Shown here piece by piece: positions 3,501 to 55,720 of a stretch of 64,000 nt of DNA (positions within the stretch are counted from its first letter, which is position 1; the number at the start of each line of letters is the position of its first letter). The stretch lies in NCBI GenBank assembly GCA_009786125.1, contig WQTU01000139.1, forward strand, positions 8,483 to 72,482, given 5' to 3'. The stretch is from Spirochaetota bacterium (GTDB lineage: Bacteria; Spirochaetota; Spirochaetia; CADAEX01). Both the position numbers and the translations under genes were made by a program. The notes under the pieces were generated by a model. The model saw only the letters and a program-made list of their open reading frames with translations. It ran no database searches and was not told where the DNA came from.

Positions 3501-3740
3501 AATCGAGTTAAGACGCTGAATCTGTTTTATTGCATCTTCCTGCGCATCTGTTGGTATTGTTGGATTTATTCTAGAAACAGCGGCTTTTAATTTTTCAAGC
3601 AAGATAATTTCTTCAAAGGAAGAACGCTGCGCTGTTTCGCTGTCCGGAGCAATATCAGGACCATATATATACTCATAGCCCTGTTTTTCGAGAAGCCTTA
3701 TCGCGAATTCTTCAATACCGGATTCAGTGATTTTATTCAT
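510..3740 (-). CDS. hsdR: Type I restriction enzyme R subunit HsdR
   Basis: 1076 aa. Helicase motifs are present: VWHTQGSGKSLSMVF (Walker A/motif I) and IVIADEAHRTQ (DEAH). Length and C-terminal region are typical of HsdR. It lies in a locus with hsdM and hsdS. Confidence 0.9.
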   Translation of the reverse strand: MNKITESGIEEFAIRLLEKQGYEYIYGPDIAPDSETAQRSSFEEIILLEKLKAAVSRINPTIPTDAQEDAIKQIQRLNSIDLVANNEVFHRMLTEGISVTYQKAGSSRGDLVWLMDFDEPENNDFVVLNQYTIIENHVNKRPDVILFINGLPLTVMELKNPIDENATVRSAFLQLETYKQAIPSLFTYNGFLIISDGLEAKAGTISAGFSRFMAWKTSDGKNEASALIGQLETLICGMLNKKTVLDLIRHFIVFEKSKKEDKETGIITIQTVKKLAAYHQYYAVNRAVESTLRASGYVKKPADSFGAEEVGESPEKYGLSGVKSQPVGDKKGGVVWHTQGSGKSLSMVFYAGKIVLAMDNPTILVITDRNDLDDQLFDTFAASRQLLRQEPVQAEDREHLKKLLRVASGGIVFTTIQKFQPEEGNVYEKLSERTNIIVIADEAHRTQYGFKAKTIDDKDENGNAIGKKIVYGFAKYMRDALPNATYLGFTGTPIENTDVNTPAVFGNYVDVYDIAQAVIDGATVRIYYESRLAKIRLSDKGKKLVKELDDELVYDDLSETQKAKAKWTQLEALIGSADRIKQVAKDIVAHFEQRQEVIDGKGMIVAMSRRIAAELYKAIIELRPEWHNDDLKKGVIKTIMTSASSDGAEISRHHTTKDQRRLLADRMKNPEDELKLVIVRDMWLTGFDVPSLHTLYLDKPMKGHNLMQAIARVNRVYKDKTGGLIVDYLGIASDLKKALSFYSDAGGKGDPAVNQEKAVQLMLEKLEIVSQMFHGFAYEQYFEADTGRKLSYILSAEEHILGLENGKKRFIDEVTALSQAFSIATPHEQAMDVKDEIAFFQAVKSRLVKFNCFGSGKTDEEIETTIRQVIDKALVTEKVIDIFDAAGIKKPDISILSEDFLLEVKNMKHKNIALEVLKKLLNDEIKSRTRKNLIQSKTLMEMLENSIKKYQNKIISAVEVIEELIGLAKEIHEMDKEPKEMGLSDYEYAFYTAIANNDSAKQLMEQDKLRELAVVLFEKVKENASIDWTIKESVRAKLKVIVKRILRQYGYPPDMQMLATETVLKQAELIADELSR

Positions 3741-4393: not shown

Positions 4394-4545
4394 ATTTAAA
4401 GCGTATCAAAATTGATACAACATGTCAAGCGATTATTTATAATCCCATATAAAACCTTTCACTGCGGATTTATAAGTTCCTTATCTGACATGGAAAAATC
4501 TTCGGCGAATTTTACTGTTGCTTTTCCCTTTAAAGTACCCAGTTC

Positions 4546-4640
4546 TCTTTTTTTGATTTTTTCCAGCAAGATTATTTCTTCAAAAGAAGAATGCTACGGT
4601 GTTTCGCTGTCCGAAGCAATGTCGGGACTATATATGTACT
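4546..4640 (-). pseudogene. Degenerate duplicate of the hsdR 5-prime end (remnant fragment with an in-frame stop)
   Basis: About 85% nucleotide identity to 3589-3672, which encodes HsdR residues ~24-55 (..FEEIILLEKL..). The fragment lacks a start and contains a TAA in frame. Confidence 0.7.
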
Positions 4641-4702
4641 AGTTCGATGGCAAAGGTTTCTATGAGGGGTGGTGGTCATTGTTCAAATATTATGACATAA
4701 GT

Positions 4703-5830
4703 TCAAAATTTATGATATGAGGAATAATATGTAATTCCGTCTATTACTGATCTTTCGGTGTCTTCAACAACAAATCCAACACTATATTTTGCCCTTGTTA
4801 TAGCTACATAAAACTTGGAACGACTTGTGTCTTTCAACTCTGATTGTTTGTTTTTTAACCACTTAAGCATTGGGGCAGTTGGGTATATAAGAATTCTATC
4901 AAAAGAAAGCCCCTTTGATTCCCCAAAGTTCATTACACGATGATTTTCACTTACAGTAGTTCTTCTACTGTCGCGTAATTGCAACGGTTCGTATTGATGT
5001 AAATATTTTTCGACATCTTTCTTTTTTACAAAAAATATTCCATCGTGGTCGGTTGTTCTATTATTTCCCGAAGTTGTTTTCTGCATTGTAGGAAACAGTT
5101 TATTTGACAATTCACAGATTGGTTTTATACATCTGTAATTAACTATGAGCATGGTATCATCTTTTGTTAACTTTTTTTCCTTATCTGTAAAAAAGTTAAC
5201 AATTTTGGCTTTTTTGAATTGTTTGTTTTTTGGTGCGCTATTGGTAGAATAAGTTCCTTGCCGAGGATCACCAACTAACAAAACATTTGAATTGCAATCA
5301 AACAACAATTTTAATAACTCTAAATCGTAACCCGCTAAATCTTGTACTTCGTCAATAAAAACATGTGCATATATTCTTGAAATTCTATCAATAACACTTC
5401 CTTTTGTTTTTTCATTGCAGCGAAATACAAATTTTGAAAGTTTGTCAGAGTAGATTTTTAGTTGATTAGAGAAATAATGTTTTTCAAAATCTTTTTCTTC
5501 CCCAAAATAGATAGGTTGCCCATTTCTCACATAACCTTTTATGCCTGACTGGCTATTTACTAAAATAAGCCCTTTGATTTTCTTATCAAGCAAAATTCCC
5601 TGAAATGGTCTTGCACCATGTTTCAATAGAAATGAAAACCAAGTTTGAACAGTAATATTTTCAGGAATACATTTGTTTAATTCAATAATTTTCGTTTTAA
5701 TTTCAGCCTCATTTGCTTGCGTATAAGTTGTAATCAGCACTTTTTCGTCTTTTATATTTAGTGCTTCATTTACAATGAGACTGGTTTTACCTGAACCCGC
5801 TGCTGCGATTATGAGTTTGTTATTTTTCAT
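4703..5830 (-). CDS. gajB: UvrD-like helicase, Gabija GajB-like
   Basis: Walker A AAAGSGKTS, motif II VFIDEVQDLAGYDL and motif VI-like YVAITRAKYSV are present. It overlaps the upstream OLD-like gene by 11 nt. Confidence 0.6.
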   Translation of the reverse strand: MKNNKLIIAAAGSGKTSLIVNEALNIKDEKVLITTYTQANEAEIKTKIIELNKCIPENITVQTWFSFLLKHGARPFQGILLDKKIKGLILVNSQSGIKGYVRNGQPIYFGEEKDFEKHYFSNQLKIYSDKLSKFVFRCNEKTKGSVIDRISRIYAHVFIDEVQDLAGYDLELLKLLFDCNSNVLLVGDPRQGTYSTNSAPKNKQFKKAKIVNFFTDKEKKLTKDDTMLIVNYRCIKPICELSNKLFPTMQKTTSGNNRTTDHDGIFFVKKKDVEKYLHQYEPLQLRDSRRTTVSENHRVMNFGESKGLSFDRILIYPTAPMLKWLKNKQSELKDTSRSKFYVAITRAKYSVGFVVEDTERSVIDGITYYSSYHKF

Positions 5831-7445
5831 TGCACCAATTGATTACATTGTCAATATAGGCAGGATATCTTATTTGCTTGTCTGAATTGAATATTTTTAA
5901 AGCAGAATTTGTTTTATTGTCTTGCATATATTTGGAAATCTTATCTGCAGTACTGTATTTGCTGTTTTGAATTTCTAAAACCTCACATAAAACAGCAAGT
6001 TTTTTATTGTTTGCATCAACAATTTGAGGCTCTAATGTATCCAGACTGTTGCGATTATCGGCGAAAATTTTGACTACTACAGAATCTTTATATAAGTCAT
6101 ATTTTTTCGTGATTTTGTTTTCGTAATCACCATCATTATCTGTAACTACCGCAACTTGTTTTTGAATTTTTTCCGCAATTTCCAAAAACCGTAAAAATGA
6201 TGTTCTAACCGAAATAACATCAACTCCGTCTTCTATTGGTAATTTCCCATTTTTTACTTGATACGCCTTTTGTACAATCAATTCATCTGAATCACCCTCT
6301 ACCAAGATTGCCTTTTTACATAAAATCAAGCGCAATGTATCATAACCTGATAATTTTTTGAAAAAATTAAAAGTATCATATGGCAAGTCATTTAGCTTGA
6401 TAGTTTGCTTATCATTAAGTAAAATTAAATTCTCTAATCCTAATTTGTTGGAAACAAAACTATTATGAGTAGAGATTAGTATTTGTTTATCGCTGTGGTC
6501 TTGGGTAATATCTTCTATCAATTGGTTAAGTTTTGTATGCGACAAATGGTTTTCGGGCTCTTCAAGCAAAATGATATTTGCTTCTTTTGCTTTTTTATGT
6601 CTTAATGCTAATTTCGTTTTGATTATACACTGCTCACCTTTACCAATATTCTGAAACGGAATTTCTTCTATACAAGTAATTAAACTATTTTCCCAAGCAT
6701 TTTTTGAAGATAGTTCAACCGATAATTCTACTTTTTTATCAGAGATTTTTGATGCATTTTTAATTTTTTCATTGATTGCTTGAATTGCCTCATGCTCAAC
6801 AAAAGTGTCTCTCATTTGTCGGTGGGCTTGTGAAACTTTTACAATTTCTTCTGATTCTAAAAAATCTTTCACTATGCGAGAAATGTAAATATCAGAACCA
6901 TTTTGTAGTTTATTGCTTGCAGAGTCAATCAAGGCAGACTTTATAGGGATTGTCCTAGTGGTAATATTTTCATCTCTCGCGAAACTTGACAATAAAACAT
7001 TATAGTATTCAATTGGAAGAGTTTTTATCCCGCCGATTTTTACTAACTCTTCATACTCCTTCTGATATTTTTCATCAAAAGCGATTTTCAATGAGATACC
7101 TGAAGATTTGGTCTTTTGACTATTGCCGTCTCCTTCAAACTCTGCTAAGTCTTCACCGTCCATATAAATTTCGATTAAAATATGTGGTAAAGATTTATTT
7201 TCTTTATCAGGTTCTAAACTCTGTATGTATTCTGCAACTACCTCATTATTAAATATATATTGAGTAAGTTCATTTTTTAGATATTTTGCGTTGTACAATC
7301 CTGTCAAAGCAAGGTGTATAGCTTCAATAATTGTAGATTTCCCTGATTCATTATTGCCAACAAGAATATTAACACCTTTATTCAAAACCAAATCAAAACT
7401 TTTGAAAATCTTGAAATTTTCAATATGTATTTTGTTAATATTCAT
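5820..7445 (-). CDS. gajA: OLD-family ATP-dependent endonuclease (ABC-type ATPase N-term + Toprim C-term), Gabija GajA-like
   Basis: N-terminus VGNNESGKSTIIEAIHLALTG is P-loop. C-terminus AILVEGDSDELIV ... VVTDNDGD is Toprim (E/DxD). The ATGA overlap with the hsdS stop gives translational coupling. Confidence 0.7.
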   Translation of the reverse strand: MNINKIHIENFKIFKSFDLVLNKGVNILVGNNESGKSTIIEAIHLALTGLYNAKYLKNELTQYIFNNEVVAEYIQSLEPDKENKSLPHILIEIYMDGEDLAEFEGDGNSQKTKSSGISLKIAFDEKYQKEYEELVKIGGIKTLPIEYYNVLLSSFARDENITTRTIPIKSALIDSASNKLQNGSDIYISRIVKDFLESEEIVKVSQAHRQMRDTFVEHEAIQAINEKIKNASKISDKKVELSVELSSKNAWENSLITCIEEIPFQNIGKGEQCIIKTKLALRHKKAKEANIILLEEPENHLSHTKLNQLIEDITQDHSDKQILISTHNSFVSNKLGLENLILLNDKQTIKLNDLPYDTFNFFKKLSGYDTLRLILCKKAILVEGDSDELIVQKAYQVKNGKLPIEDGVDVISVRTSFLRFLEIAEKIQKQVAVVTDNDGDYENKITKKYDLYKDSVVVKIFADNRNSLDTLEPQIVDANNKKLAVLCEVLEIQNSKYSTADKISKYMQDNKTNSALKIFNSDKQIRYPAYIDNVINWCNEK

Positions 7446-8717: not shown

Positions 8718-9788
8718 TTAGCCCCCATCTCCGGCTTTTCCTTGTTTTTTCTTCCTCTTCTGCGTCTCTTCTGTCTTGGTCTCAAGTTCAATAAATCTAT
8801 CAAAATCACTTTTGAATAGTTTGTCCTGTACAATGCGATATTTTTCAAATTCGGTTTCTGCATGTTTTTGGGCAATTTCTGCGGAGACCTTTCCGGCATC
8901 ACTTAAAATTTCACGGTCTGTTGCCGCAATGAAGCGGTTAAGCCGGGTTTCCCAATCACTCATAGTCATGGGAATACGCCGAATAGCCATATCTTCTGCA
9001 ATATCCAGATAGGCGTTAACAAGTCGTTCAAGTTGCTTCATTTCAAATTCAGTTAAGTAATTTTTAGCAACAACAACATCGTATTTTTGGATTTTTCCTT
9101 TTGGAGCGTCATTCCAAGAAGTTAAACCCATGTGCTGTTTTTCGGAATTGGCGCGTTCGATAATTAATTCCGCGGCTGTATGACCATGAATAGCCCAGTG
9201 AAGTTTATTTTGCACAGTAGCAAAAAAACGTTTGGTCGCAGCGGCAGTTACATCATAATCAACGGAAGTAGCATAAATATCAGTAATTTTCTGATAGAAT
9301 TTTCGTTCGCTTAGGCGTATTTCTCGGATACGTGCCAGTTGTTCTTCAAAATACTTGTTTGTTAATATGCTGCCGGATTTCAGACGTTCATCGTCCATGA
9401 CGTAGGCTTTAATCGTAAATTCTTCAATTATGTTTGTTGCCCATTTGCGAAATTGAACAGCTCGTTCAGAGTTTACTTTGTAGCCGACAGCAATTATGGC
9501 TTTTAAGTTGTAATGCTTTGTATCATAAGTTTTGCCATCTGAAGCAGTTATCCGGAAATTCCGGATAACTGCTTTTTCGTCCAATTCACTATCAGCAAAT
9601 ATTTTTTTTAAGTGTTCGTTAATAGTACGAACATTTACATCATAAAGCACAGCCATCATCTTTTGCGACAGCCATACGTTTTCGTCAGCATATATTGCCT
9701 CAACTCCATCTTTGCCGCTTGCAGCAATAAAAGTTAAATATTCTGCAGCAGAACTGCGGATAGTGATTTCTTTTTTTGGGGATTTCAT
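8718..9788 (-). CDS. RhuM-family (virulence protein RhuM) DNA-binding protein
   Basis: The sequence IRNFRITASDGKTYDTKHYNLKAIIAVGYKVNSERAVQFRKWATNII matches the RhuM family, which is commonly embedded in type I R-M loci. Confidence 0.75.
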   Translation of the reverse strand: MKSPKKEITIRSSAAEYLTFIAASGKDGVEAIYADENVWLSQKMMAVLYDVNVRTINEHLKKIFADSELDEKAVIRNFRITASDGKTYDTKHYNLKAIIAVGYKVNSERAVQFRKWATNIIEEFTIKAYVMDDERLKSGSILTNKYFEEQLARIREIRLSERKFYQKITDIYATSVDYDVTAAATKRFFATVQNKLHWAIHGHTAAELIIERANSEKQHMGLTSWNDAPKGKIQKYDVVVAKNYLTEFEMKQLERLVNAYLDIAEDMAIRRIPMTMSDWETRLNRFIAATDREILSDAGKVSAEIAQKHAETEFEKYRIVQDKLFKSDFDRFIELETKTEETQKRKKKQGKAGDGG

Positions 9789-9816: not shown

Positions 9817-10530
9817 TCATTGACTTTTCCCCCTCATAGAATATCTCACAATCCATTTGCCGGTTTTATCAGCACCAACACGCTCTATAACCCCTGATTT
9901 TTTCAGTTGAGCAACATTGTATTCCACTCTACGTTTAGTTATTTGAATGGTACCTGCAATTTTTTCAGCAGTAATTTCAGGGTTTTCAATCATTAAGGCA
10001 ACAATTTTCGCTTTTAATTCATCCAATCTATAATTTACACCACCATTTACACCACCATCTAATGCTTCTTCCCTTTTATTGTTATTTCTGATATGAAAGC
10101 AAATTGAAAACATAGTTGCCAAAATATCAAATTCGGGCTCAGGAAGGTTATCGGCAATGCAGCCGCTTTTCATTTTTTCAATACCTCTTCCCCAAGCTTC
10201 AATTTGCCCGGAACGAAAATAATATTTTCCTCTAAAGCTGATGGCATTCGGGTGCAGGCTTATCTTTATGACAATATAATCTAAGCTTTTTTCTGTGTAC
10301 AAATTGACATCAGCTAAAATCCCCATTGTTGAGCGAATTTTATTAGGAAGCTCTTCCAACAATTTTGATGCATTTGATATTCCGACAACTACACCACGAT
10401 TGTTTTTGCCAATTTCAAGAACACCTCCCTGTGCATTAGCAAAACCGCAAATCCACTTCAGGTATTCGTCGCGCCAAGTCTCTTTCCATTCAACAATCTG
10501 ATTTTCTCGGCTTTTAACTTTTTTATTCAT
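9817..10530 (-). CDS. AlbA_2 (Schlafen-like) domain protein with C-terminal winged-HTH
   Basis: N-terminal [27 protein letters not shown] is AlbA_2-like. A C-terminal HTH is present. There is a 4-nt overlap with hsdM. Confidence 0.65.
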
Positions 10531-12104: not shown

Positions 12105-12250
12105 AAGTTTGCTCGCGACTCTCACTTATTCGGCGGATGTGCAAGCTCTGCAACATGGACGTCACTGCCTAGCAGTGGATCTGGCGCAGCGACACGGATG
12201 TCGCGATAAAGCGCCAGGCAGCTTGTCCGCGGTTCTTGCTCCGTCAGCGA
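12105..12250. repeat. GC-rich interspersed repeat, A-type module; inverted copy at ~53320-53440
   Basis: cgcgactctcacttattcggcggatgtgcaagctctgcaacatggacgt...ctggcgcagcgacacggatgtcgcgataaagcgccaggcagcttg is near-identical to the reverse complement of 53320-53440. The CTCACTTATTCGGCGGATG sub-module also occurs at 55673-55693 and, inverted, at 50140-50160. Confidence 0.8.
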
Positions 12251-13209
12251 ATGAGCCTGCTTAAAATACCTCTTTTCTTCCGCCAGTTGGAGTTAACTTT
12301 TACCCGTAAATCTATTATAACCGGATACGGAAAAATCGATTTTATTTCCCGTTTTGCAGCTTTTTTGATTGCGCGGATTTTCTCCCCGCCGCTGCCAATA
12401 ATTATTTTCTTTTGCGACTCACTCTCTGCAATCAAAAACGCCCGCACCCAAAGCTCCTCGCCGTGCTGACCCTGGTTCATTTCAATATCCGCGATTTCAA
12501 CATAAACACTGTGGGGGATTTCTTCTTTTGTTCTGTTTACTGCTTTTTCTCTTATTATCTCACTTATTCGAAAAGCAACATCCTGATCCGTATAAACATC
12601 ATCAGGATATAATTTCTCGCCTTCGGGCGCTTTCTCAAACATAACATCAAGAAGTTTATCCACGCCCTCGCCAGTCATTGCCGAAACATGGCAGATGGAA
12701 ATATCTTTAGCCGGCTCTTTTTTGCGAAGATTTTTTTTCAAAAAGTTCCCAAGGCTTTCGAGAAACTCCGGTATGTTTTTCTCCGCTACCGTAATAAGAT
12801 CAATTTTATTTAAAGCAACGATTACAACCGCGTTCAGCGCCGCAAGATATTCGAGTATTTTTTTCTCTTCTTCGCCGGGCTCCCGCGTGCAGTCAGTAAC
12901 GTAAAGAATTATTTCTGCATCATTAACAACAGTCTCGGTTACCTGCTTTAATTCGTTATTTATTTTTTTTTCTGAAATATGATATCCGGGAGTATCCTGA
13001 AAAATCAGCTGCCCCCGTTCTTCAGTTAAGATGCCGCGAATTACATTTCTTGTTGTCTGCGGAGTTGCAGACACAATGGAAACCTTATATCCGCATATCT
13101 TGTTCACGAGAGTCGATTTTCCGGAAGATGGCCTTCCTATAAGTGTAATAAAAGCTGATTTCACTATAAAATATCCTTTTTTGGCGACTAAACTGAAAAC
13201 AATCATCAA
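12244..13209 (-). CDS. era: GTPase Era
   Basis: G1 GRPSSGKSTL and G3 DTPG are present, with a C-terminal KH domain. The true start is probably GTG at 13164 (AAAGGA 9 nt upstream), which gives the canonical Era N-terminus. Confidence 0.9.
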   Translation of the reverse strand: MMIVFSLVAKKGYFIVKSAFITLIGRPSSGKSTLVNKICGYKVSIVSATPQTTRNVIRGILTEERGQLIFQDTPGYHISEKKINNELKQVTETVVNDAEIILYVTDCTREPGEEEKKILEYLAALNAVVIVALNKIDLITVAEKNIPEFLESLGNFLKKNLRKKEPAKDISICHVSAMTGEGVDKLLDVMFEKAPEGEKLYPDDVYTDQDVAFRISEIIREKAVNRTKEEIPHSVYVEIADIEMNQGQHGEELWVRAFLIAESESQKKIIIGSGGEKIRAIKKAAKREIKSIFPYPVIIDLRVKVNSNWRKKRGILSRLIR

Positions 13210-15945: not shown

Positions 15946-18900
15946 CTAATCATGAATGGACAGACTTTTAATATATTTTTTTAATTCAGAATTATCGGGC
16001 ATGATATAAGGTTTATATTGGAAGATGTTTTTTACTCCATCAGAGTAATATACTGTATTATCTTTTAAACCAGCAACAGCAACGCCGTCAATGAGATTGT
16101 CAGCATCGCTGTTGCTCAAAGCAAAAATGATTCTTGCAGGAAATTTGGATAAAATGTTTTCACCATAATACATATTTTCCTTGACGCTTTGATATTCAAG
16201 CGAAGAAGTAATAAAATAAATTCCATAATTGGACCCATCGTCAATAAGCTGCAACAGTTTTTCTGAGATGGACAGGGATGGAGAGCCTGCATTTCCTGAT
16301 ACACCGAAATCAGCAAATTCATTTACGGACTTAGTGGCAATATTATCAATATATTCACTTTCATCTACGGACTCACCTTTAAACATTTTTTTTATAAGAT
16401 CAAGAAATTGCAGGTTCTTTATTACAACCAAAGATTGTTTATTATCCCCGCCCTTTTTTCTCTCTGAGTAAATTGTAAATAAATCGTTGATAATTTGAAT
16501 TATTTCTGTTCTGTTTTTTGCAGTCCTGAAACGTAAACTAAAACCGGTTAAACAATCATAAAATGCAGCCGAGATGCTTTCGCCTATTAAACTCTCTCCA
16601 TCTATACAGTAAACATTAGTATTTGTGTTCAGTAATGCTGAAAACATACAAAGGTTAGTAAGATTTTCAGCCATTTTTTCGTTTGCTCCACAAATTAATA
16701 AATTATGCCTTCTGCGCCGATCAAACTGCATAATAAATGGTGGTGCAACCTTTATGAGTGTCCCCATGTATATTTTTATAACGTTATCAGATGAAGAACC
16801 TGTTTTGCTTTGATTCAAATATTCAACAAGTGAAACCGTTCTGTTTCCTTCAAATATTTGCATCGTAGCTGGATAATCTGCATACTTTTCAGAAATAAGA
16901 GACAAATATTTTATTTGTGCTTTTTTTGAGCAATATGCGGCACGGAATCCTATATTATTTGATTCCATGTATTCCAAATTCATTACGGCTGTACCGATAG
17001 GGCCTTTCATCATTTCAATGATTTTATCATCGTTTCGATTTCCGAATAAATACCGTATATCATCCTCACCGCATTTTAAACCAATACGGATACGCATTTG
17101 TTCAATAATGCCATGCGATAGTGTCAGTTCACTTATAATTTTTGTAGTCTGCGTTGCCATCAAAAGATGAATGCCAAAGGCCCGACCTTCGGTGACGATC
17201 CGCTTAGTCAGTTCAGAGCAATTTCTGGCTACTTTGCGATTTGCAGAATCATTAAAAAGAATTTGAAACTCGTCCATGACAACTAAAATACGTGGCAGAG
17301 GATTTCCTGTGCCTTTTATATAATCAAAAAGGCTTGATTGTCCAGAATTTTTAAACAAGTCTCCACGGCGCAGCATTTCGCTGACTAGATTTTCCAATAT
17401 ACTCTCGCCAAATTCCTGCATGGCATCAAGCGCTAATAATTGAATATGCGGCAAATTGAAAGATTCATAAATCTTAAACTCTGTTCCGCTTTTAAAATCC
17501 ATCAAATACAAATGTAACTCATCTGGGCTATGGGATAACATACCACTCATAATTATTGTGTGCAGTAAAGTTGATTTGCCGGAGCCCGTAGCACCGGCGA
17601 TTATCCCATGATGTGATGAACCTTCTCCCAATATCAAGTCTACAGGGTTTTCGCCGTCGCCAATGCCCACGGTAATAGATAGTCTTTTTGCTGTTGAAGA
17701 AGAAAAAAGCGATGGACTTATAATGTCTTCAAGGGATAGACCTTTTTGTTTTAGGTTGGTAATAGCTTCTATGTATTGATTTATAAAATCGGAAATCCTG
17801 TTCTTTGATAGCTCAGGTGCTACATCAACTTGTAATCCAAAAGGTTGAAGAATATATTTTTTTTCAACATATTCCAACAAAGAACAGTGTTTTTTTATCT
17901 CTTCAAGATGTTCATCGATACTCTCATACTTTGAAAATAAGATATTTGGATTATGGCATATAACTGCGTAAATTCCGCATTTGCTGCCATTATTAAGAAT
18001 ATTTATTAACAACTCTATACTTCGGTTGTCAAAATTGCGGGGAAAATCAAATATAATCAACATAATAATAGGTTCGATACGATTAGGCGTGTTACTGTTG
18101 TATTCAATAATATTGGCAAAGCGATTGCCGAGCTTCTCCTGGATAAACTCGTCAATATATCTGTTTAATTTTTGCAGCGTACCTATCATAGCGTCTTGTG
18201 TGGTATAAATTTGTCCGTCAAAAATATCAGGAAGATTTTGGCGAAAATCCAAAAAAGGCGTTATGCTGTTACCCCGGCGTTCAGCATCAAATACGCAAAA
18301 TTTTATTTTTGAAACCGGAACAGAAGATAGAAAGCTCCACATTAAACCGTGTATAAATTTTATTACATGCTGCTGGACTGCTTCCGGGCAAATAATTAAT
18401 AGACTACTTTTTTCTTTAAGGTTAAAAATTGCCGGCAAAATAAAAGTTTGTGAATTTTGTGTTGTCAATTCAGTTTTTATTCTTGCAATCGTATTGTTAT
18501 CTGCTACTAAATCCAAAGGACAGGATAAATACCCTACTGAGATTTCCGCGGGGAAACTGTCTGTAACTGACGGAACTACACCAAAAGTATTGTTATACCT
18601 GTCAAGAGTATTTTTTATTGCACTTATTGCAAATTGAACTTTATCGGCATTTTCACTGTCTATCAGTTCACAGACTATAGAACCTAATAAAGCAATATTG
18701 CCGTGAAAACTACTGTAAGTGAATAAATAATTTTTGATATATCTTGATAAATCATTTCCTGCAAGGGCTTCATTATATGTTACCCGAAGATTGTAGTAGA
18801 GGAACATATCAACCGCTTGTTGGATGATAATACTGTTTTTTACATGGTAAGGCGGCAAGGCATTTCCTGACTGTACTCTATATACAATTACGGTATAAAC

Positions 18901-20226
18901 ACCAAGATTTTTTCCATTTTCAATAATGTTATTTATCGATGCTACATTTTTGTCTCCCAATGCTTCGGGAGAGTCGAAAACAATTAAAACCTTTATATCT
19001 GGTGTTGCCACTGTATTATTGCAAATACTCAGTTTTTCTAATGTTTCCCTTATTTCCTCATTGGATGTTTTTACTCCTCCATTAAACAGTTCCGGTATTT
19101 TTTTGATAAAATCCATATATGAAGACACATTTTTTCCCTGACCTTCTGAATCTATTATGCTGAAAGTCAAATGTGTAACCGGGGCAAAAGCAATAAAACT
19201 CTGTATTATGGAGCTAACAAGTTGGTTTTTAAGATTGCTATTTACCGTATATTTTACAAGTAAATTCAAATTATCGCTTAAAGAAAATACAAGAGGAAAC
19301 CTAAGTAATTTACTTTGTGAAATAATGGCCGCACATTTATCTTTAATAAGTGAAAACAAAATCTTGGAACTCACAAATAATTCTAATGGATAGTCAATAT
19401 TCCCTAAGACAATAGTATCATCCCATGCACAATAGCTTGATGTTATTCCTGTAAAGTTACTAATATAGCGTTCATTAATTGTTTTTAATGAACCTAACAG
19501 ACTATCAGGTAAAATCTTATCTAACTGTTCACAAATCTCATCAGCCAATATTTCTACGTTGCTTTCATACCTTGATTTTATTTTAGACAGTTCTGCTTGA
19601 TACTTTGATTCTATTTCCTCAGTTTTTTTGGCATGAGCATCTTTCTCAGCTTGTGTTGAATCATTGACCAGTTCAGCTATTGTTTTTTTGATTTCTTCCA
19701 TTAAATTTTCTAGTCTTATTTTCAGAACAATTAAATCTTCATAGTCTTGTTTTCGTTGTTTTGAAAAGGCAAAGTTTATACCATCAAAAAGAGCAGGTAA
19801 TTTCTCTTTTGAATATTTTAATGAAAGTGATTCAAATTGTTTTTTAACATTTTCTAAGGCTAAAAAAATGTCAGGATCATCAATGGTGGTTATTTCGGCT
19901 TTTTTTCCCAGCTCCTCTGTTTTAAGATCTCGCGCTTTAACATAATATTTATCAGCATTTGCCAGAGAAGTATCCAATGCCAATACTTCTTTATATATTT
20001 TTTCAGCATTGTTCTTTAATTCGGCACCTTTTTTTCTAGTAACATTAGCACTACTATCATATTGCCCAGCGGCATTTGACATGAATTGATTATATTGTTC
20101 TTCCAAGCTTTTTTTTGAGTTTTCAAAATTATTCCATAATTGCTGAATTCTCTGATCAGATTGTTCTGCAAAGGAATTAATGTTATTAATGAGTCTCAAA
20201 ACTGTTTGATATGTAATTTTACTCAT
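15946..20226 (-). CDS. Giant FtsK/SpoIIIE-family multi-domain ATPase with N-terminal coiled coil (EssC/EccC-like, no TM or FHA)
   Basis: One intact FtsK-type P-loop domain (HHGIIAGATGSGKSTLLHTII; Walker B RILVVMDEFQ) is flanked by three degenerate FtsK-like domains (VLIVFDSPE, IIMLIIFDFPRNFDN, SLVVIKNLQFLD). About 250 aa of N-terminal coiled coil. No hydrophobic TM segment. Confidence 0.7.
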   Translation of the reverse strand: MSKITYQTVLRLINNINSFAEQSDQRIQQLWNNFENSKKSLEEQYNQFMSNAAGQYDSSANVTRKKGAELKNNAEKIYKEVLALDTSLANADKYYVKARDLKTEELGKKAEITTIDDPDIFLALENVKKQFESLSLKYSKEKLPALFDGINFAFSKQRKQDYEDLIVLKIRLENLMEEIKKTIAELVNDSTQAEKDAHAKKTEEIESKYQAELSKIKSRYESNVEILADEICEQLDKILPDSLLGSLKTINERYISNFTGITSSYCAWDDTIVLGNIDYPLELFVSSKILFSLIKDKCAAIISQSKLLRFPLVFSLSDNLNLLVKYTVNSNLKNQLVSSIIQSFIAFAPVTHLTFSIIDSEGQGKNVSSYMDFIKKIPELFNGGVKTSNEEIRETLEKLSICNNTVATPDIKVLIVFDSPEALGDKNVASINNIIENGKNLGVYTVIVYRVQSGNALPPYHVKNSIIIQQAVDMFLYYNLRVTYNEALAGNDLSRYIKNYLFTYSSFHGNIALLGSIVCELIDSENADKVQFAISAIKNTLDRYNNTFGVVPSVTDSFPAEISVGYLSCPLDLVADNNTIARIKTELTTQNSQTFILPAIFNLKEKSSLLIICPEAVQQHVIKFIHGLMWSFLSSVPVSKIKFCVFDAERRGNSITPFLDFRQNLPDIFDGQIYTTQDAMIGTLQKLNRYIDEFIQEKLGNRFANIIEYNSNTPNRIEPIIMLIIFDFPRNFDNRSIELLINILNNGSKCGIYAVICHNPNILFSKYESIDEHLEEIKKHCSLLEYVEKKYILQPFGLQVDVAPELSKNRISDFINQYIEAITNLKQKGLSLEDIISPSLFSSSTAKRLSITVGIGDGENPVDLILGEGSSHHGIIAGATGSGKSTLLHTIIMSGMLSHSPDELHLYLMDFKSGTEFKIYESFNLPHIQLLALDAMQEFGESILENLVSEMLRRGDLFKNSGQSSLFDYIKGTGNPLPRILVVMDEFQILFNDSANRKVARNCSELTKRIVTEGRAFGIHLLMATQTTKIISELTLSHGIIEQMRIRIGLKCGEDDIRYLFGNRNDDKIIEMMKGPIGTAVMNLEYMESNNIGFRAAYCSKKAQIKYLSLISEKYADYPATMQIFEGNRTVSLVEYLNQSKTGSSSDNVIKIYMGTLIKVAPPFIMQFDRRRRHNLLICGANEKMAENLTNLCMFSALLNTNTNVYCIDGESLIGESISAAFYDCLTGFSLRFRTAKNRTEIIQIINDLFTIYSERKKGGDNKQSLVVIKNLQFLDLIKKMFKGESVDESEYIDNIATKSVNEFADFGVSGNAGSPSLSISEKLLQLIDDGSNYGIYFITSSLEYQSVKENMYYGENILSKFPARIIFALSNSDADNLIDGVAVAGLKDNTVYYSDGVKNIFQYKPYIMPDNSELKKYIKSLSIHD

Positions 20227-20254
20227 ATAACGCTCTCCTTAGCCATTTATGATT

Positions 20255-21379
20255 TTACTTCTCATACTTGCATTTTTTGCCGCATTTTTTTGAAAAACCA
20301 ACTTTTAGTGAAGTCGTAACCTGAAGGGGATAGCTAAATATCTCAACCATTTCGCCGCCGATTTTCGGATTACTTGTATTGCTTACAAGCGTATATTGCG
20401 TAAGATTATTCAATAAACGCGGGATATAACCCTCATTGTTTGCATTAAAAATATCGAGTATCAGCTTGATACCGATTGAAGTAGCAAAATTTATATCGAC
20501 TGATATACCAGGCTCAAACTTTACTCCTTCGGTATTTTCTTGATTTGAGTATACATGATGATTGGCCTCGGCTCTTGACGAAAGGCCGCTGCCATCGCCT
20601 AAAGCGCACTCATAACATGGCAAGCCTTTTCCATACAGGTGATAAAAAATCTCACCAGCAAAAGCCCTTTCCCAAAATCCTATAGAAACAAAAGAGGATT
20701 GATAGTATATGCTGATTCTATTTGTGTACACGTCCGCAATGCGGTTGTCAGCACAGCCGATAAAAACTGTGTTTCCAGCTACACAAAACGAATCCATAGT
20801 TTCTTTTGGCAAATTCTGTACGATGCCTTCAAAAGTAATTACCTCTGCACTTGGATTAATATTAAGAATCTTTCTTTTGAGAGCATATACTTTAAAATCA
20901 CCAACATCTTCTATTCCGCATTGATGGCGGCAAATATTATGATATTCTACTATATCTGCATCAACCAAAATAAAATGCTTTACTCCAGCCCGTGCCAACT
21001 CCAGGGCAACCAGGCTGCCGACAGAGCCGCAGCCTAATATTATTGCTTTTTTTTGGCACATTATATCAGATTCTAATATCCCCTTGTTACGTGAGAATAT
21101 ATTTTGATAGAGGCTGTATATTTCACATTTTATTTTTTTTCCATAACTATAAAAATCTATACCTGCACTTGTAATAACTCCACACAGCTTGTTCTTGTTA
21201 CAATTACTGCCTTTCGGTAACACTTTTCCTAGAAGCTCTCCTTTACTTTCCAGTTCGGGAGGAAATACATTATATATGGCAGATTCTTTGTAATACCTGC
21301 CATATATATTCCTTTCATTTTGAGTACTTGCCTGTATGTCTGATATGAATACCGTCTTTTCCATTTGTGGTTTTTTCAT
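20255..21379 (-). CDS. ThiF/MoeB/E1-like adenylyltransferase (ubiquitin-activating-enzyme-like)
   Basis: Rossmann nucleotide loop KKAIILGCGSVGSLVALELARAGVKHFILVDADIVEYHNICRHQ is present, with downstream CxxC (CYEC) and conserved Cys candidates. Confidence 0.8.
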   Translation of the reverse strand: MKKPQMEKTVFISDIQASTQNERNIYGRYYKESAIYNVFPPELESKGELLGKVLPKGSNCNKNKLCGVITSAGIDFYSYGKKIKCEIYSLYQNIFSRNKGILESDIMCQKKAIILGCGSVGSLVALELARAGVKHFILVDADIVEYHNICRHQCGIEDVGDFKVYALKRKILNINPSAEVITFEGIVQNLPKETMDSFCVAGNTVFIGCADNRIADVYTNRISIYYQSSFVSIGFWERAFAGEIFYHLYGKGLPCYECALGDGSGLSSRAEANHHVYSNQENTEGVKFEPGISVDINFATSIGIKLILDIFNANNEGYIPRLLNNLTQYTLVSNTSNPKIGGEMVEIFSYPLQVTTSLKVGFSKKCGKKCKYEK

Positions 21380-21381
21380 TC

Positions 21382-22368
21382 CTATAAATCCTTGTTTTCA
21401 TTTCCTATACCGAACGCACGCAGTAAACCAGACTTAAATGTGACATCTGCGGGGTTAAAGTCTGTTAATAAATTGGTGAATAGCCCTGGGGTATATAAAT
21501 AGCAATCATCGTCATGAGAAAAAACAATCTGCTTCTTATGTGCAACATATATAAAGTGAATCATTGTAACAATGTTACTTGACCCTTTATGAGATAAGCT
21601 TAAAACTCCCTTGTTTTGTTCAATTTTCAAAGCCAATTTTCGATTTTCAGAAAAATATGTTATATCGTCCAGCAAAGAATCAATTAAAAAATCTCGATAT
21701 TTTTCAGCCTCTTCTGGCTTGTAATCATCTTTAGACAGTGTAGTTTTCTGTAATTTTCCTTTGATGCTAACAAGTAAACGTAAAAAATCTATTTCCGGTT
21801 TGTCAAAGGTTTTATTTCCGGAATATAATTTGTCAGCGTAACTATTTATATATCCAAGTGATTTTTCCGCATTTCTTAACGCAAGTAAATGTTCAGGGAT
21901 TAAGTTATCACCCACTTTATAAGCGATTTTAGTATATTTAAGGGGCCATGCTACATGATATGGCGTAATGCGGAACTTTGGATCAATATTAACCAAAACA
22001 GAAACAGCGCCATTGGCAGACATTTTAGCATAATCAGAGTTAGTTCCATCGTCTGTGGAAGAAAACTCGTCAAAAGAACCCGGATGCCTGTGCCATAGCC
22101 CAATTAAAGTCAATTTTGCTTGATATATCTGTACTAATTTGTTTATTAAATGTTCTGTATATTTTTTATCGTACTCGAAGTATGCAACTTGAAAAATCGC
22201 CTTTGGGCCTGGGTCTATTGCTTCTATGACATACCAATTCCCATTCTCAAAGCAGCCTAAAAATATTCCGCCGGTTTCGGTTTTTATTTTTTCTGAGGTT
22301 TCCGAAATAACCGCCGTGTATGCGCGATTAGAAAAAATCACCTGCATAATTTTCCCCCGTTGATACAT
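21382..22368 (-). CDS. JAB/MPN (JAMM) metallo-isopeptidase-like protein with ~200-aa C-terminal extension
   Basis: Perfect JAMM motif H-x-H-x7-S-x2-D in LIGLWHRHPGSFDEFSSTDD, with an upstream conserved Glu (VIEAID). Confidence 0.8.
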   Translation of the reverse strand: MYQRGKIMQVIFSNRAYTAVISETSEKIKTETGGIFLGCFENGNWYVIEAIDPGPKAIFQVAYFEYDKKYTEHLINKLVQIYQAKLTLIGLWHRHPGSFDEFSSTDDGTNSDYAKMSANGAVSVLVNIDPKFRITPYHVAWPLKYTKIAYKVGDNLIPEHLLALRNAEKSLGYINSYADKLYSGNKTFDKPEIDFLRLLVSIKGKLQKTTLSKDDYKPEEAEKYRDFLIDSLLDDITYFSENRKLALKIEQNKGVLSLSHKGSSNIVTMIHFIYVAHKKQIVFSHDDDCYLYTPGLFTNLLTDFNPADVTFKSGLLRAFGIGNENKDL

Positions 22369-50084: not shown

Positions 50085-50420
50085 AAAGAAGCGAGAGTCG
50101 CGCCGAAGCCGGACCCGAAGGGGACGTGCTTGCACGGGCATCCGCTGAATAAGTGAGGGTCGCGGGCGTGCTTGCACGCACATGACCGAACGATGAGGTG
50201 GACAAAGAGGCTTTGCCTCTTATGTACCGAGCGAATGAGGAAACAAATGGTCGCGTACGCGTACCCCGCAGCTTTGGCTGCGGAGCATGCGCCGTAGGCG
50301 CAGGGTGTGCAGGGCAAAGCCCTGCGGTATTCGTCGACGAAACGAGAGTTGCGGGCAAGCAAAGCTTGCACATAACCGAGTGAGGAGACGAACACGAGGT
50401 ATAATACCATTTATTTGATT
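50085..50420. repeat. Cluster of GC-rich interspersed repeat modules (R5-inverted, R1, R2, then GGTATAATACC) upstream of lysC
   Basis: catccgctgaataagtgag (inverse of CTCACTTATTCGGCGGATG). R1 at 50176-50239 (gcacatgaccgaacgatgaggtggacaaag..cttatgtaccgagcgaatgagg). R2 at 50344-50387. tataat at 50401-50406, ~45 nt before the lysC ATG. Confidence 0.85.
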
Positions 50421-53289: not shown

Positions 53290-53520
53290 TTGAGTCCCAC
53301 AAATTTATTTCTGAATGGAGCGAAAGCCGCAAGCAAGCTGCCTGGCGCTTTATCGCGACATCCGTGTCGCAGCGCCAGACACAACGTCCATGTTGCAGAG
53401 CTTGCACATTCGCCGAAGAAGTGAGTGTCGCGGACGTGCTTGCAAGCACATGACCAAACGATAAGGTGGACAAAGGCACTATGCTCCTTATGTACTGAGC
53501 GAGTGAGGCGCCTAAAAAGA
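53290..53520. repeat. GC-rich interspersed repeat cluster (A-type inverted + R5-inverted + R1)
   Basis: 53320-53440 is the reverse complement of the 12105-12250 element. R1 copy at 53447-53508 (gcacatgaccaaacgataaggtggacaaaggcactatgctccttatgtactgagcgagtgagg). Confidence 0.85.
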
Positions 53521-55591: not shown

Positions 55592-55720
55592 CCTCACGCG
55601 CTCGGTTCACAAGTGGCATAGCCCCTTTGCCCACCTCATCGTTCGGTCATGTGCAAATTACATTTGCCCGCAACTCTCACTTATTCGGCGGATGAGCGTG
55701 CTTGCACGTCGCGACACTCG
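55592..55720. repeat. GC-rich interspersed repeat (R1 inverted copy + R5 module)
   Basis: The reverse complement of 55592-55654 reads gcacatgaccgaacgatgaggtgggcaaaggggctatgccacttgtgaaccgagcgcgtgagg. ctctcacttattcggcggatg at 55673-55693. Confidence 0.85.

Follow-up and report, generated by a model that had tools for sequence, protein, structure and literature searches.

The gap between gajB and higB in a cargo-laden type I restriction-modification (R-M) operon holds a truncated second copy of the 5′ end of hsdR, which is an inert pseudogene fragment and which is probably the scar of a merger between two versions of one and the same operon. The fragment (hereafter the stub) is an ordinary scar without likely function. 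Read as a record, it would tell that the Gabija genes once stood directly before an hsdR start, and that HigBA together with the present hsdR start has a different history.

Organization of the R-M operon and its cargo

The window, i.e. the whole stretch of 64,000 nt analyzed herein, carries all the genes of its first 12 kb on the minus strand, and these make up one type I R-M operon interrupted by cargo, in the following order.

12068-10527, minus strand: hsdM (homology annotation)
10530-9817, minus strand: AlbA_2/wHTH cargo gene (homology annotation)
9788-8718, minus strand: rhuM-family cargo gene, between hsdM and hsdS (PADLOC PDC-S05)
8542-7442, minus strand: hsdS (homology annotation)
7445-5820, minus strand: gajA, 541 aa, its start overlapping the hsdS stop (PADLOC)
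5830-4703, minus strand: gajB, 375 aa (short form; covers PADLOC PDLC00148 in full length), with its stop TGA at 4705-4703
4702-4394: gap between gajB and higB, 309 nt
4393-4031, minus strand: higB-like toxin gene, Gp49/DUF891, 120 aa (Pfam)
4028-3747, minus strand: higA-like HTH antitoxin gene, 93 aa (Pfam)
3740-510, minus strand: intact hsdR, 1076 aa, with HSDR_N, SWI2/SNF2 ATPase and T1RH-like_C domains (TIGR00348)

Gabija was defined as the adjacent genes for GajA (ABC ATPase plus TOPRIM) and GajB (UvrD-like helicase), and PADLOC detected both as adjacent, full-length genes (2.9e-214 for GajA and 1.3e-144 for GajB). Judged from the Pfam matches of its products (Gp49, 2e-17; HTH_37/HTH_3, about 3e-5) and from the location of the toxin gene upstream of the HTH antitoxin gene, higBA is a HigBA-like type II toxin-antitoxin pair. 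The ATG of the intact hsdR lies 6 nt past the higA stop with no terminator in between, and hsdR expression may thus be tied to the higBA promoter. The Gabija genes (4703-7445) have a GC content of 0.30-0.32 and a GC3 of 0.25 as compared with 0.38 for the window, while the hsd genes and HigBA are less AT-rich; this AT-richness hints that Gabija came separately, and probably more recently, from a foreign source, but the composition does not settle the order of events. The island is flanked by housekeeping genes, with era (12244-13209) and clpP upstream, and downstream by a cut-off ORF (20-457) with an anticodon-binding domain. All the island genes were annotated, and neither among them nor in the flanks was any integrase, transposase, invertase or recombinase found.

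Anatomy of the hsdR stub

The stub and its surroundings consist of the following elements.

4552-4679, minus strand: pseudo-hsdR stub, codons 1-52 (profile match, frame translation and alignment to relatives)
4552-4640, minus strand: repeat core of the stub, region of codons 23-52 (self-blastn, E 1.35e-22)
3585-3673, minus strand: counterpart of the core in the intact hsdR, codons 23-52 (repeat finder, frame translation)
4641-4639, minus strand: in-frame TAG at hsdR codon 23, GAG to TAG (hsdR-frame translation)
4596-4594, minus strand: in-frame TAG at hsdR codon 38, CAG to TAG (hsdR-frame translation)
4551-4444, minus strand: filler, 108 nt, joined to stub codon 52
4443-4394, minus strand: conserved stretch upstream of higB, TTGACA followed by the palindrome GTATCAAttTTGATAC

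A match of about 90 nt to the start of hsdR, at roughly 85% identity, had been described for this gap in the first-pass annotation, and it was confirmed by each method employed. The repeat finder gave a direct, ungapped repeat of 89 nt with 85% identity (3585-3673 and 4552-4640), with which the MAFFT alignment agrees, and self-blastn of the window recovered the same repeat at 85.4% identity, ranking it second in strength among those that involve the first 13 kb. When HsdR was compared with the window by tblastn, residues 24-52 were found at 4638-4552 with 79% identity. A DNA profile made from 74 related hsdR genes (their first 180 nt, the sequence of the window being excluded) matched 4665-4555 in nhmmer (E 4.8e-15) within an envelope of 4679-4545. 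By these similarities the fragment is the 5′ end of a gene of the hsdR family.

The extent first given to the fragment, 4546-4640, stands for the core repeat at 4552-4640, but its left edge is at 4552 and the stub reaches up to 4679. An in-frame stop had also been reported, and there are in fact two TAG codons, at codons 23 and 38. The accompanying statement that the fragment has no start applies inside those coordinates only, because the profile envelope takes in an ATG at 4679-4677, which is probably the start codon of the stub. This ATG is located 23 nt past the gajB stop, where the coding strand reads ATGACCACCACC; together with the degenerate codons 2-7 it shows weak similarity to hsdR, within the profile envelope only and outside the aligned core. 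Past a frameshift the stub reads LIETFAIEL, which resembles the N-terminus of related proteins such as that of locus L006 (MTTSKITESAIETFAIELLEK) in the comparison set introduced below, and codons 8-16 (IETFAIEL) were assigned to 4665-4641. A clean deletion of 20 nt follows, corresponding to model positions 48-67 of the nhmmer profile, and codons 23-52 then extend from 4641 to 4552; a smaller deletion is present in addition near the 5′ end. The similarity to hsdR stops past codon 52, at 4552, and a run of A residues (4549-4556), a candidate microhomology, lies at the join between stub and filler. With codons 1-52 only, a deletion and two TAG codons, the stub has no intact frame, and it includes neither nuclease nor motor domains. 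The junction is base-for-base the same in the Logan assemblies SRR5247064 and SRR5247065, three assemblies thus showing one arrangement, and its identity in two independent Logan assemblies indicates that it is not an artefact of one assembly.

Filler and upstream region of higBA

The 108-nt filler continues the reading frame of the stub up to a stop (…KRELGTLKGKATVKFAEDFSMSDKELINPQ, then the stop codon). It gave no Pfam match at E up to 10, and tblastn against all the fetched loci gave a single weak match, in L006 (E 0.028). In the protein database its peptide was found solely as the 36-aa gene call of this very locus by JGI, and upstream of other HigBA cassettes the filler is not conserved. 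A resemblance of the filler to the C-terminus of a DUF2281-like antitoxin was considered and dropped in view of the Pfam result.

The adjoining stretch 4394-4443 is presumed to be the higBA promoter/operator, and the left edge of a conserved cassette, because it carries TTGACA together with the palindrome; the consensus promoter scan did not call it. Within a set of 80 metagenomic HigBA relatives, matches of 27-48 nt to this stretch (79-95% identity) were found in 28 loci. Conservation among the 80 relatives begins about 50 nt before higB and ends at the higA stop, with unrelated flanks, and no conserved element downstream of higA was detected in 60 HigBA loci. Since the conservation ends at the higA stop and the flanks are unrelated, HigBA is a minimal and promiscuous cassette. 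None of the 80 relatives adjoins an hsdR of this family. The HigBA cassettes on metagenome contigs (L087-L166) are 65-79% identical to that of the window and occur in roughly 60 genomic contexts; many of them originate from few metagenomes, including Ga0099364, which is also the source of the L007 Treponema MAG.

Comparison of the stub with the resident hsdR

The two copies differ by 13 substitutions in 30 codons, 6 of the 13 being synonymous. When both were compared with 74 relatives, the stub was found to keep the family consensus at E15 and P37, where the resident gene has R and A, respectively, while the resident keeps the consensus at the positions where the stub has S27, S32, H39 and I51. 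The copies also have rare states in common, namely I45 (2 of 74 relatives), I46 (8 of 74) and K50 (9 of 74). Among about 200 relatives (80 genome loci plus 120 further proteins), no allele was found closer to the stub than the resident: stub and resident are 85% identical in nucleotide sequence, as against at most 83% over shorter stretches for other relatives. As judged from these sequences, the two copies may be regarded as sister alleles that belong to one sub-lineage and diverged some time ago. The consensus residues that the stub keeps and the resident has lost imply that the copies split long ago or came from different alleles. With respect to the latter choice, the upstream partners differ (gajB for the stub and higA for the resident) and the divergence amounts to 15%, yet the resident is the nearest known relative of the stub.

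Proposed origin of the stub

The difference in upstream partners, gajB for one hsdR start and higA for the other, argues for the merger of two operon versions and not for a simple local duplication. From this difference, from the anatomy and the pseudogene state of the stub and from the recurrence of stubs in related operons, all of which were observed, we infer a mechanism and an order of events as follows. One parental version would have been hsdS-gajA-gajB-hsdR and the other X-higB-higA-hsdR, in which X stands for some other gene, both parents being reconstructed. In the hsdR that followed gajB, codon 52 would have been connected by a single non-homologous join to the 108-nt filler, the DNA preceding higBA, and ordinary homologous recombination within one of the conserved hsd genes would have resolved the other end of the exchanged segment; this gene would be hsdR if higBA-hsdR was incoming, and hsdS or hsdM if Gabija plus stub was incoming. 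Two mirror-image versions of this event fit the structure equally well. In one of them, filler-higBA-hsdR would have entered the operon by means of an anchor in hsdR, and its left end would have been attached to the resident gajB-linked hsdR at codon 52; in the other, hsdS-gajAB-hsdR(1-52) would have entered through an anchor in hsdS or hsdM, and its right end would have been attached ahead of the resident higBA. Both belong to the class of homology-facilitated illegitimate recombination (HFIR), and either would yield a product in which one intact hsdR is kept and both cargo modules are stacked. The stub would have decayed later through two deletions and the gain of two stop codons.

The layout in the window is that of a displacement scar (stub, filler, higBA and intact hsdR), and six related loci are laid out alike. 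The interpretation of the fragment as a recombination scar, already put forward in the first-pass annotation, is supported, with a decayed hsdR 5′ end lying between two cargo modules in one hsdM-hsdS-hsdR operon. The suggestion that it marks the insertion of Gabija and HigBA as one unit has to be abandoned, because the stub, which begins 23 nt after gajB, separates the two modules, and the intact hsdR begins 6 nt after higA. As to the relic of a second R-M unit that was also considered, this idea survives only if the unit is understood as another version of this very operon; no other hsd fragments were found in the window.

Neither of the parental arrangements was recovered from the searched collections. 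No sister genome with either of them and no HsdR relative above 84% identity were found therein, and none of the four closest GajB relatives (80-87% identical) precedes an hsdR, their contexts being an integrase, an AlwI-type R-M system, an Eco57I-type enzyme and unrelated genes. Short-form Gabija was found associated with this R-M family in a second and different way in Arachidicoccus (L079:13281-19111), in which GajA and GajB homologues (64-69%) are located directly downstream of a same-family hsdR on the opposite strand.

Alternative explanations

Among the alternatives, a local duplication (tandem or unequal sister-chromatid) of the hsdR 5′ region followed by decay, which would involve no second operon version, is unlikely. 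Such a duplication agrees with the resident hsdR being the closest known relative of the stub at both nucleotide and protein levels and with the rare residues I45, I46 and K50 common to both copies, but a duplicated segment that reached from codon 52 back past higBA would have copied higBA as well, and none is present upstream of the stub; the stub ATG is located 23 nt past gajB, extra precise deletions would be needed, and the stub holds consensus residues that are lost from the resident. We consider as slightly less probable still a Campbell-type integration, in which a circle carrying filler-higBA plus hsdR codons 1-52 was inserted at the hsdR 5′ end through one homologous crossover. The same final structure would result, with the stub ending where the homology ends and the intact gene downstream; several stubs of relatives end at about codon 33, and a repeat in L006 consists of the RhuM 3′ end plus hsdR codons 1-49 (237 nt, 95%). 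There is no sign of a circular form or an excision function, however, and the homology is about 150 nt only; the stub ends differ among loci, the remnants do not cluster across loci, and the differing contexts (gajB and higA) are explained no better than by the merger. Two kinds of mobile element were rejected outright. Target-site duplication by a transposon or IS does not agree with a repeat of 89-128 nt at 85% identity, with the lack of a transposase, or with the HigBA relatives, which share no ends outside the promoter and the two genes. An integron gene cassette was dismissed since there are 6 nt between the higA stop and the hsdR ATG, no conserved downstream element in 60 HigBA loci, and no integrase.

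A functional non-coding element (regulatory RNA, attenuator or terminator) or a translated micro-protein between gajB and higBA is very improbable, even though the 309-nt gap separates genes of an operon, an ATG with an out-of-frame ORF of 35 codons is present, and JGI called a 36-aa gene over the filler. The stub RNA is predicted to fold no more stably than its shuffles (z -0.19), Rfam, terminator and promoter scans of the stub region were all negative, with no promoter consensus therein, and the peptide has neither a Pfam match nor an outside homologue. Hardly worth entertaining is a programmed variation, be it an exchange of the hsdR 5′ end in a shufflon-like manner, as considered in the first-pass annotation, or by phase variation, or else a switch by deletion between the direct repeats. 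Programmed rearrangements are known for type I systems, mostly of hsdS, and two similar copies do lie 967 nt apart in the window. Phase-variable hsdS shufflons, which are likewise marked by partial hsd copies near a full gene, exchange target-recognition domains between inverted repeats by means of a site-specific recombinase, and none of these features is present here: the copies are direct and not inverted, they are 85% identical with a longest exact block of 14 nt as read from the alignment, no recombinase is encoded in or beside the island, and all three assemblies are alike. Because of the stops and frameshifts in the stub, any exchange would inactivate hsdR; a deletion between direct repeats of 85% identity with exact blocks of at most 14 nt should be rare, and its product would again be a defective hsdR. 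Just as implausible is a chance similarity or an assembly chimera of two strains. Chance is ruled out by the self-blastn (E 1e-22) and the independent profile (E 5e-15). The genome is metagenome-assembled and strain mixtures can make false joins, but the stub is a decayed pseudogene and no functional second allele, the two separate Logan assemblies agree exactly at the junction, and the same gajB and the filler peptide were also found on contigs of 181 kb and 138 kb (JGI), respectively.

Recurrence of hsd gene-end fragments in related operons

For comparison we employed 80 genome loci of this hsdR family, labelled with L-numbers, from both MAGs and isolates of many phyla, of which the HsdR proteins are 72-84% identical in amino acid sequence to that of the window. 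Where both genes are visible, hsdS and hsdR are separated by more than 300 nt in 47 of 54 loci and by more than 1 kb in 37 of the 54, and the distance between hsdM and hsdS exceeds 300 nt in 34 of 48. These wide gaps indicate that cargo is the rule in this hsdR family.

An extra N-terminal stub of hsdR was detected in six of the 80 loci (L006, L015, L017, L021, L028 and L068), which come from several phyla. All six are located on the same strand as the operon and upstream of cargo (a RhuM gene) and the intact hsdR, and they are 70-98% identical in nucleotide sequence to the 5′ end of their own resident hsdR. The extra fragments of HsdS (L007, L021, L067, L068 and L076) are all C-terminal, as are those of HsdM (L053 and L081), and no internal hsd gene fragments were seen among the related loci, so that only the gap-facing gene ends are echoed, i.e. 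the 5′ end of hsdR and the 3′ ends of hsdS and hsdM. These gene-end echoes suggest a simple mechanism of embedding, composed of a homologous anchor and an illegitimate join.

Two of the loci are particularly complex. In L068 (7467-7766), a single ORF of 99 codons consists of an hsdR stub (codons 1 to about 58) fused to the last 26 or so codons of hsdS, and is followed by RhuM copies and then by the intact hsdR; such a fusion is what one would expect if a segment of another operon had been joined to the interior of a resident gene. L006 (8800-11440) carries in order a TIR-like gene, a stub, a frameshifted RhuM gene, a second stub, a second RhuM gene and the intact hsdR. The second stub belongs to a 237-nt repeat of 95% identity that spans the RhuM 3′ end and hsdR codons 1-49, and the two RhuM-plus-stub units are 78.5% identical over 894 nt. 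The large cargo gene of L006 was judged putatively TIR-like by eye from its N-terminal sequence.

The stubs end at different positions depending on the locus (codons 33, about 49, 52 and about 58), and stubs from different loci were not found to cluster together. The lack of clustering speaks for repeated events and against a single inherited scar, so that a common ancestral event behind the stubs of the relatives is not supported. A possible generalization, which we offer tentatively and with less confidence than the merger in the window itself, is that in this widely transferred hsdM-hsdS-hsdR family defence cargo was embedded and stacked mainly by one-sided homologous recombination at the conserved hsd ends, with the echoes as its footprints, the operons as collectors of cargo much like the Rhs/CDI/T6SS arrays, and the possible hotspot at codons 33-36 (see below) included. 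If this is true, stubs could be used for reconstructing the order of cargo acquisition.

Several observations were made around hsdR codons 33-36 (…ATTGCNCCGGAC…; CCGGAC), which is a candidate hotspot of breakpoints. The stubs at L015:10090-10135, L017:2370-2425, L021:3560-3600 and L028:10090-10150 end immediately past CCGGAY, and a GC-rich hairpin follows. Apart from a four-copy repeat of L023 that looks unrelated, only L015, L017 and L021 were found to carry a hairpin motif past codon 33 (CCTGYCTGCG…CGCGRCAGG). Six of the 74 intact hsdR genes (L006, L018, L044, L047, L066 and L076) carry in-frame GC-rich or repeated insertions at codons 33-37, which in L076 are tandem units of RDVPVPRAQEVQERPPD. 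The L023 repeats, on a Spirochaetota MAG, are four near-identical copies of about 150 nt or more (4980-5190, 6045-6255, 9265-9475 and 10220-10430) starting with CGGACAGGAYGTCC…; they separate small ORFs just downstream of hsdR with the look of a cassette array or MITEs, and their start resembles the in-frame insertions in hsdR of L044 and L076.

Relation to known systems

Defence genes embedded in type I operons have been described before. PrrC in EcoprrI is such a defence gene embedded in a type I R-M operon. Further cases are TgvAB on VPI-2 of V. cholerae (PMC11411939) and the embedded candidates of Payne et al. (2024, bioRxiv 10.1101/2024.01.29.577857). In the window, as in these loci, cargo on the same strand (Gabija, HigBA, RhuM of PDC-S05 and the AlbA_2 protein) is inserted between hsdM, hsdS and hsdR; unlike in these loci, the interest of the stub is in how the cargo arrived and not in new cargo. 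The consulted passages of the TgvAB paper describe content and function, with no mention of recombination scars found, and a term search of the Payne et al. preprint likewise gave no mention of recombination scars or duplicated hsd ends. Our literature search found no recombination scars at hsd loci, and no mechanism of embedding is given in the searched papers on genes embedded in type I R-M operons.

The closest parallels are the displaced 'orphan' modules of Rhs, CDI (cdiA-CT/cdiI) and T6SS arrays, for which an origin by HFIR has been proposed (Kirchberger et al. 2017, PMC5361080, with Jackson 2009 and Poole 2011 cited there). In those arrays, as proposed here, a conserved region serves as the homologous anchor while the other end joins illegitimately, the old part is pushed aside as a truncated fragment that still includes some of the conserved region, a single copy stays functional, and repeated events lead to stacks (as in L006 here). 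The arrays have a conserved 5′ toxin region, and what is displaced are 3′ toxin ends with immunity genes that are possibly still useful, whereas the piece displaced in the window comes from the 5′ end of a gene for a restriction subunit and can hardly have kept any function, and the accumulating material is unrelated defence cargo between operon genes. HFIR in transformation and conjugation was described by de Vries & Wackernagel (2002) and Prudhomme et al. (2002), as cited in PMC5361080. The experimental products agree with the structure proposed here in having one homologous anchor and one illegitimate end, with foreign DNA inserted and the resident part retained alongside, but they are demonstrated short-term products, while the window holds only an old and decayed product.

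Other features of the window

The intergenic element upstream of the hsdM start (12114-12242) is repeated within the window, with other copies at 53317-53432, 55663-55706 and 50128-50167 that are 81-87% identical. Inside rhuM, a near-perfect palindrome of 33 nt (97%) was noted at 9542-9574. Near the R-M island, a 1426-aa protein with an FtsK/SpoIIIE domain is encoded, followed by ThiF (E1-like) and prokaryotic JAB proteins (15946-22368, minus strand), and this trio may represent another defence or conjugation-type module.
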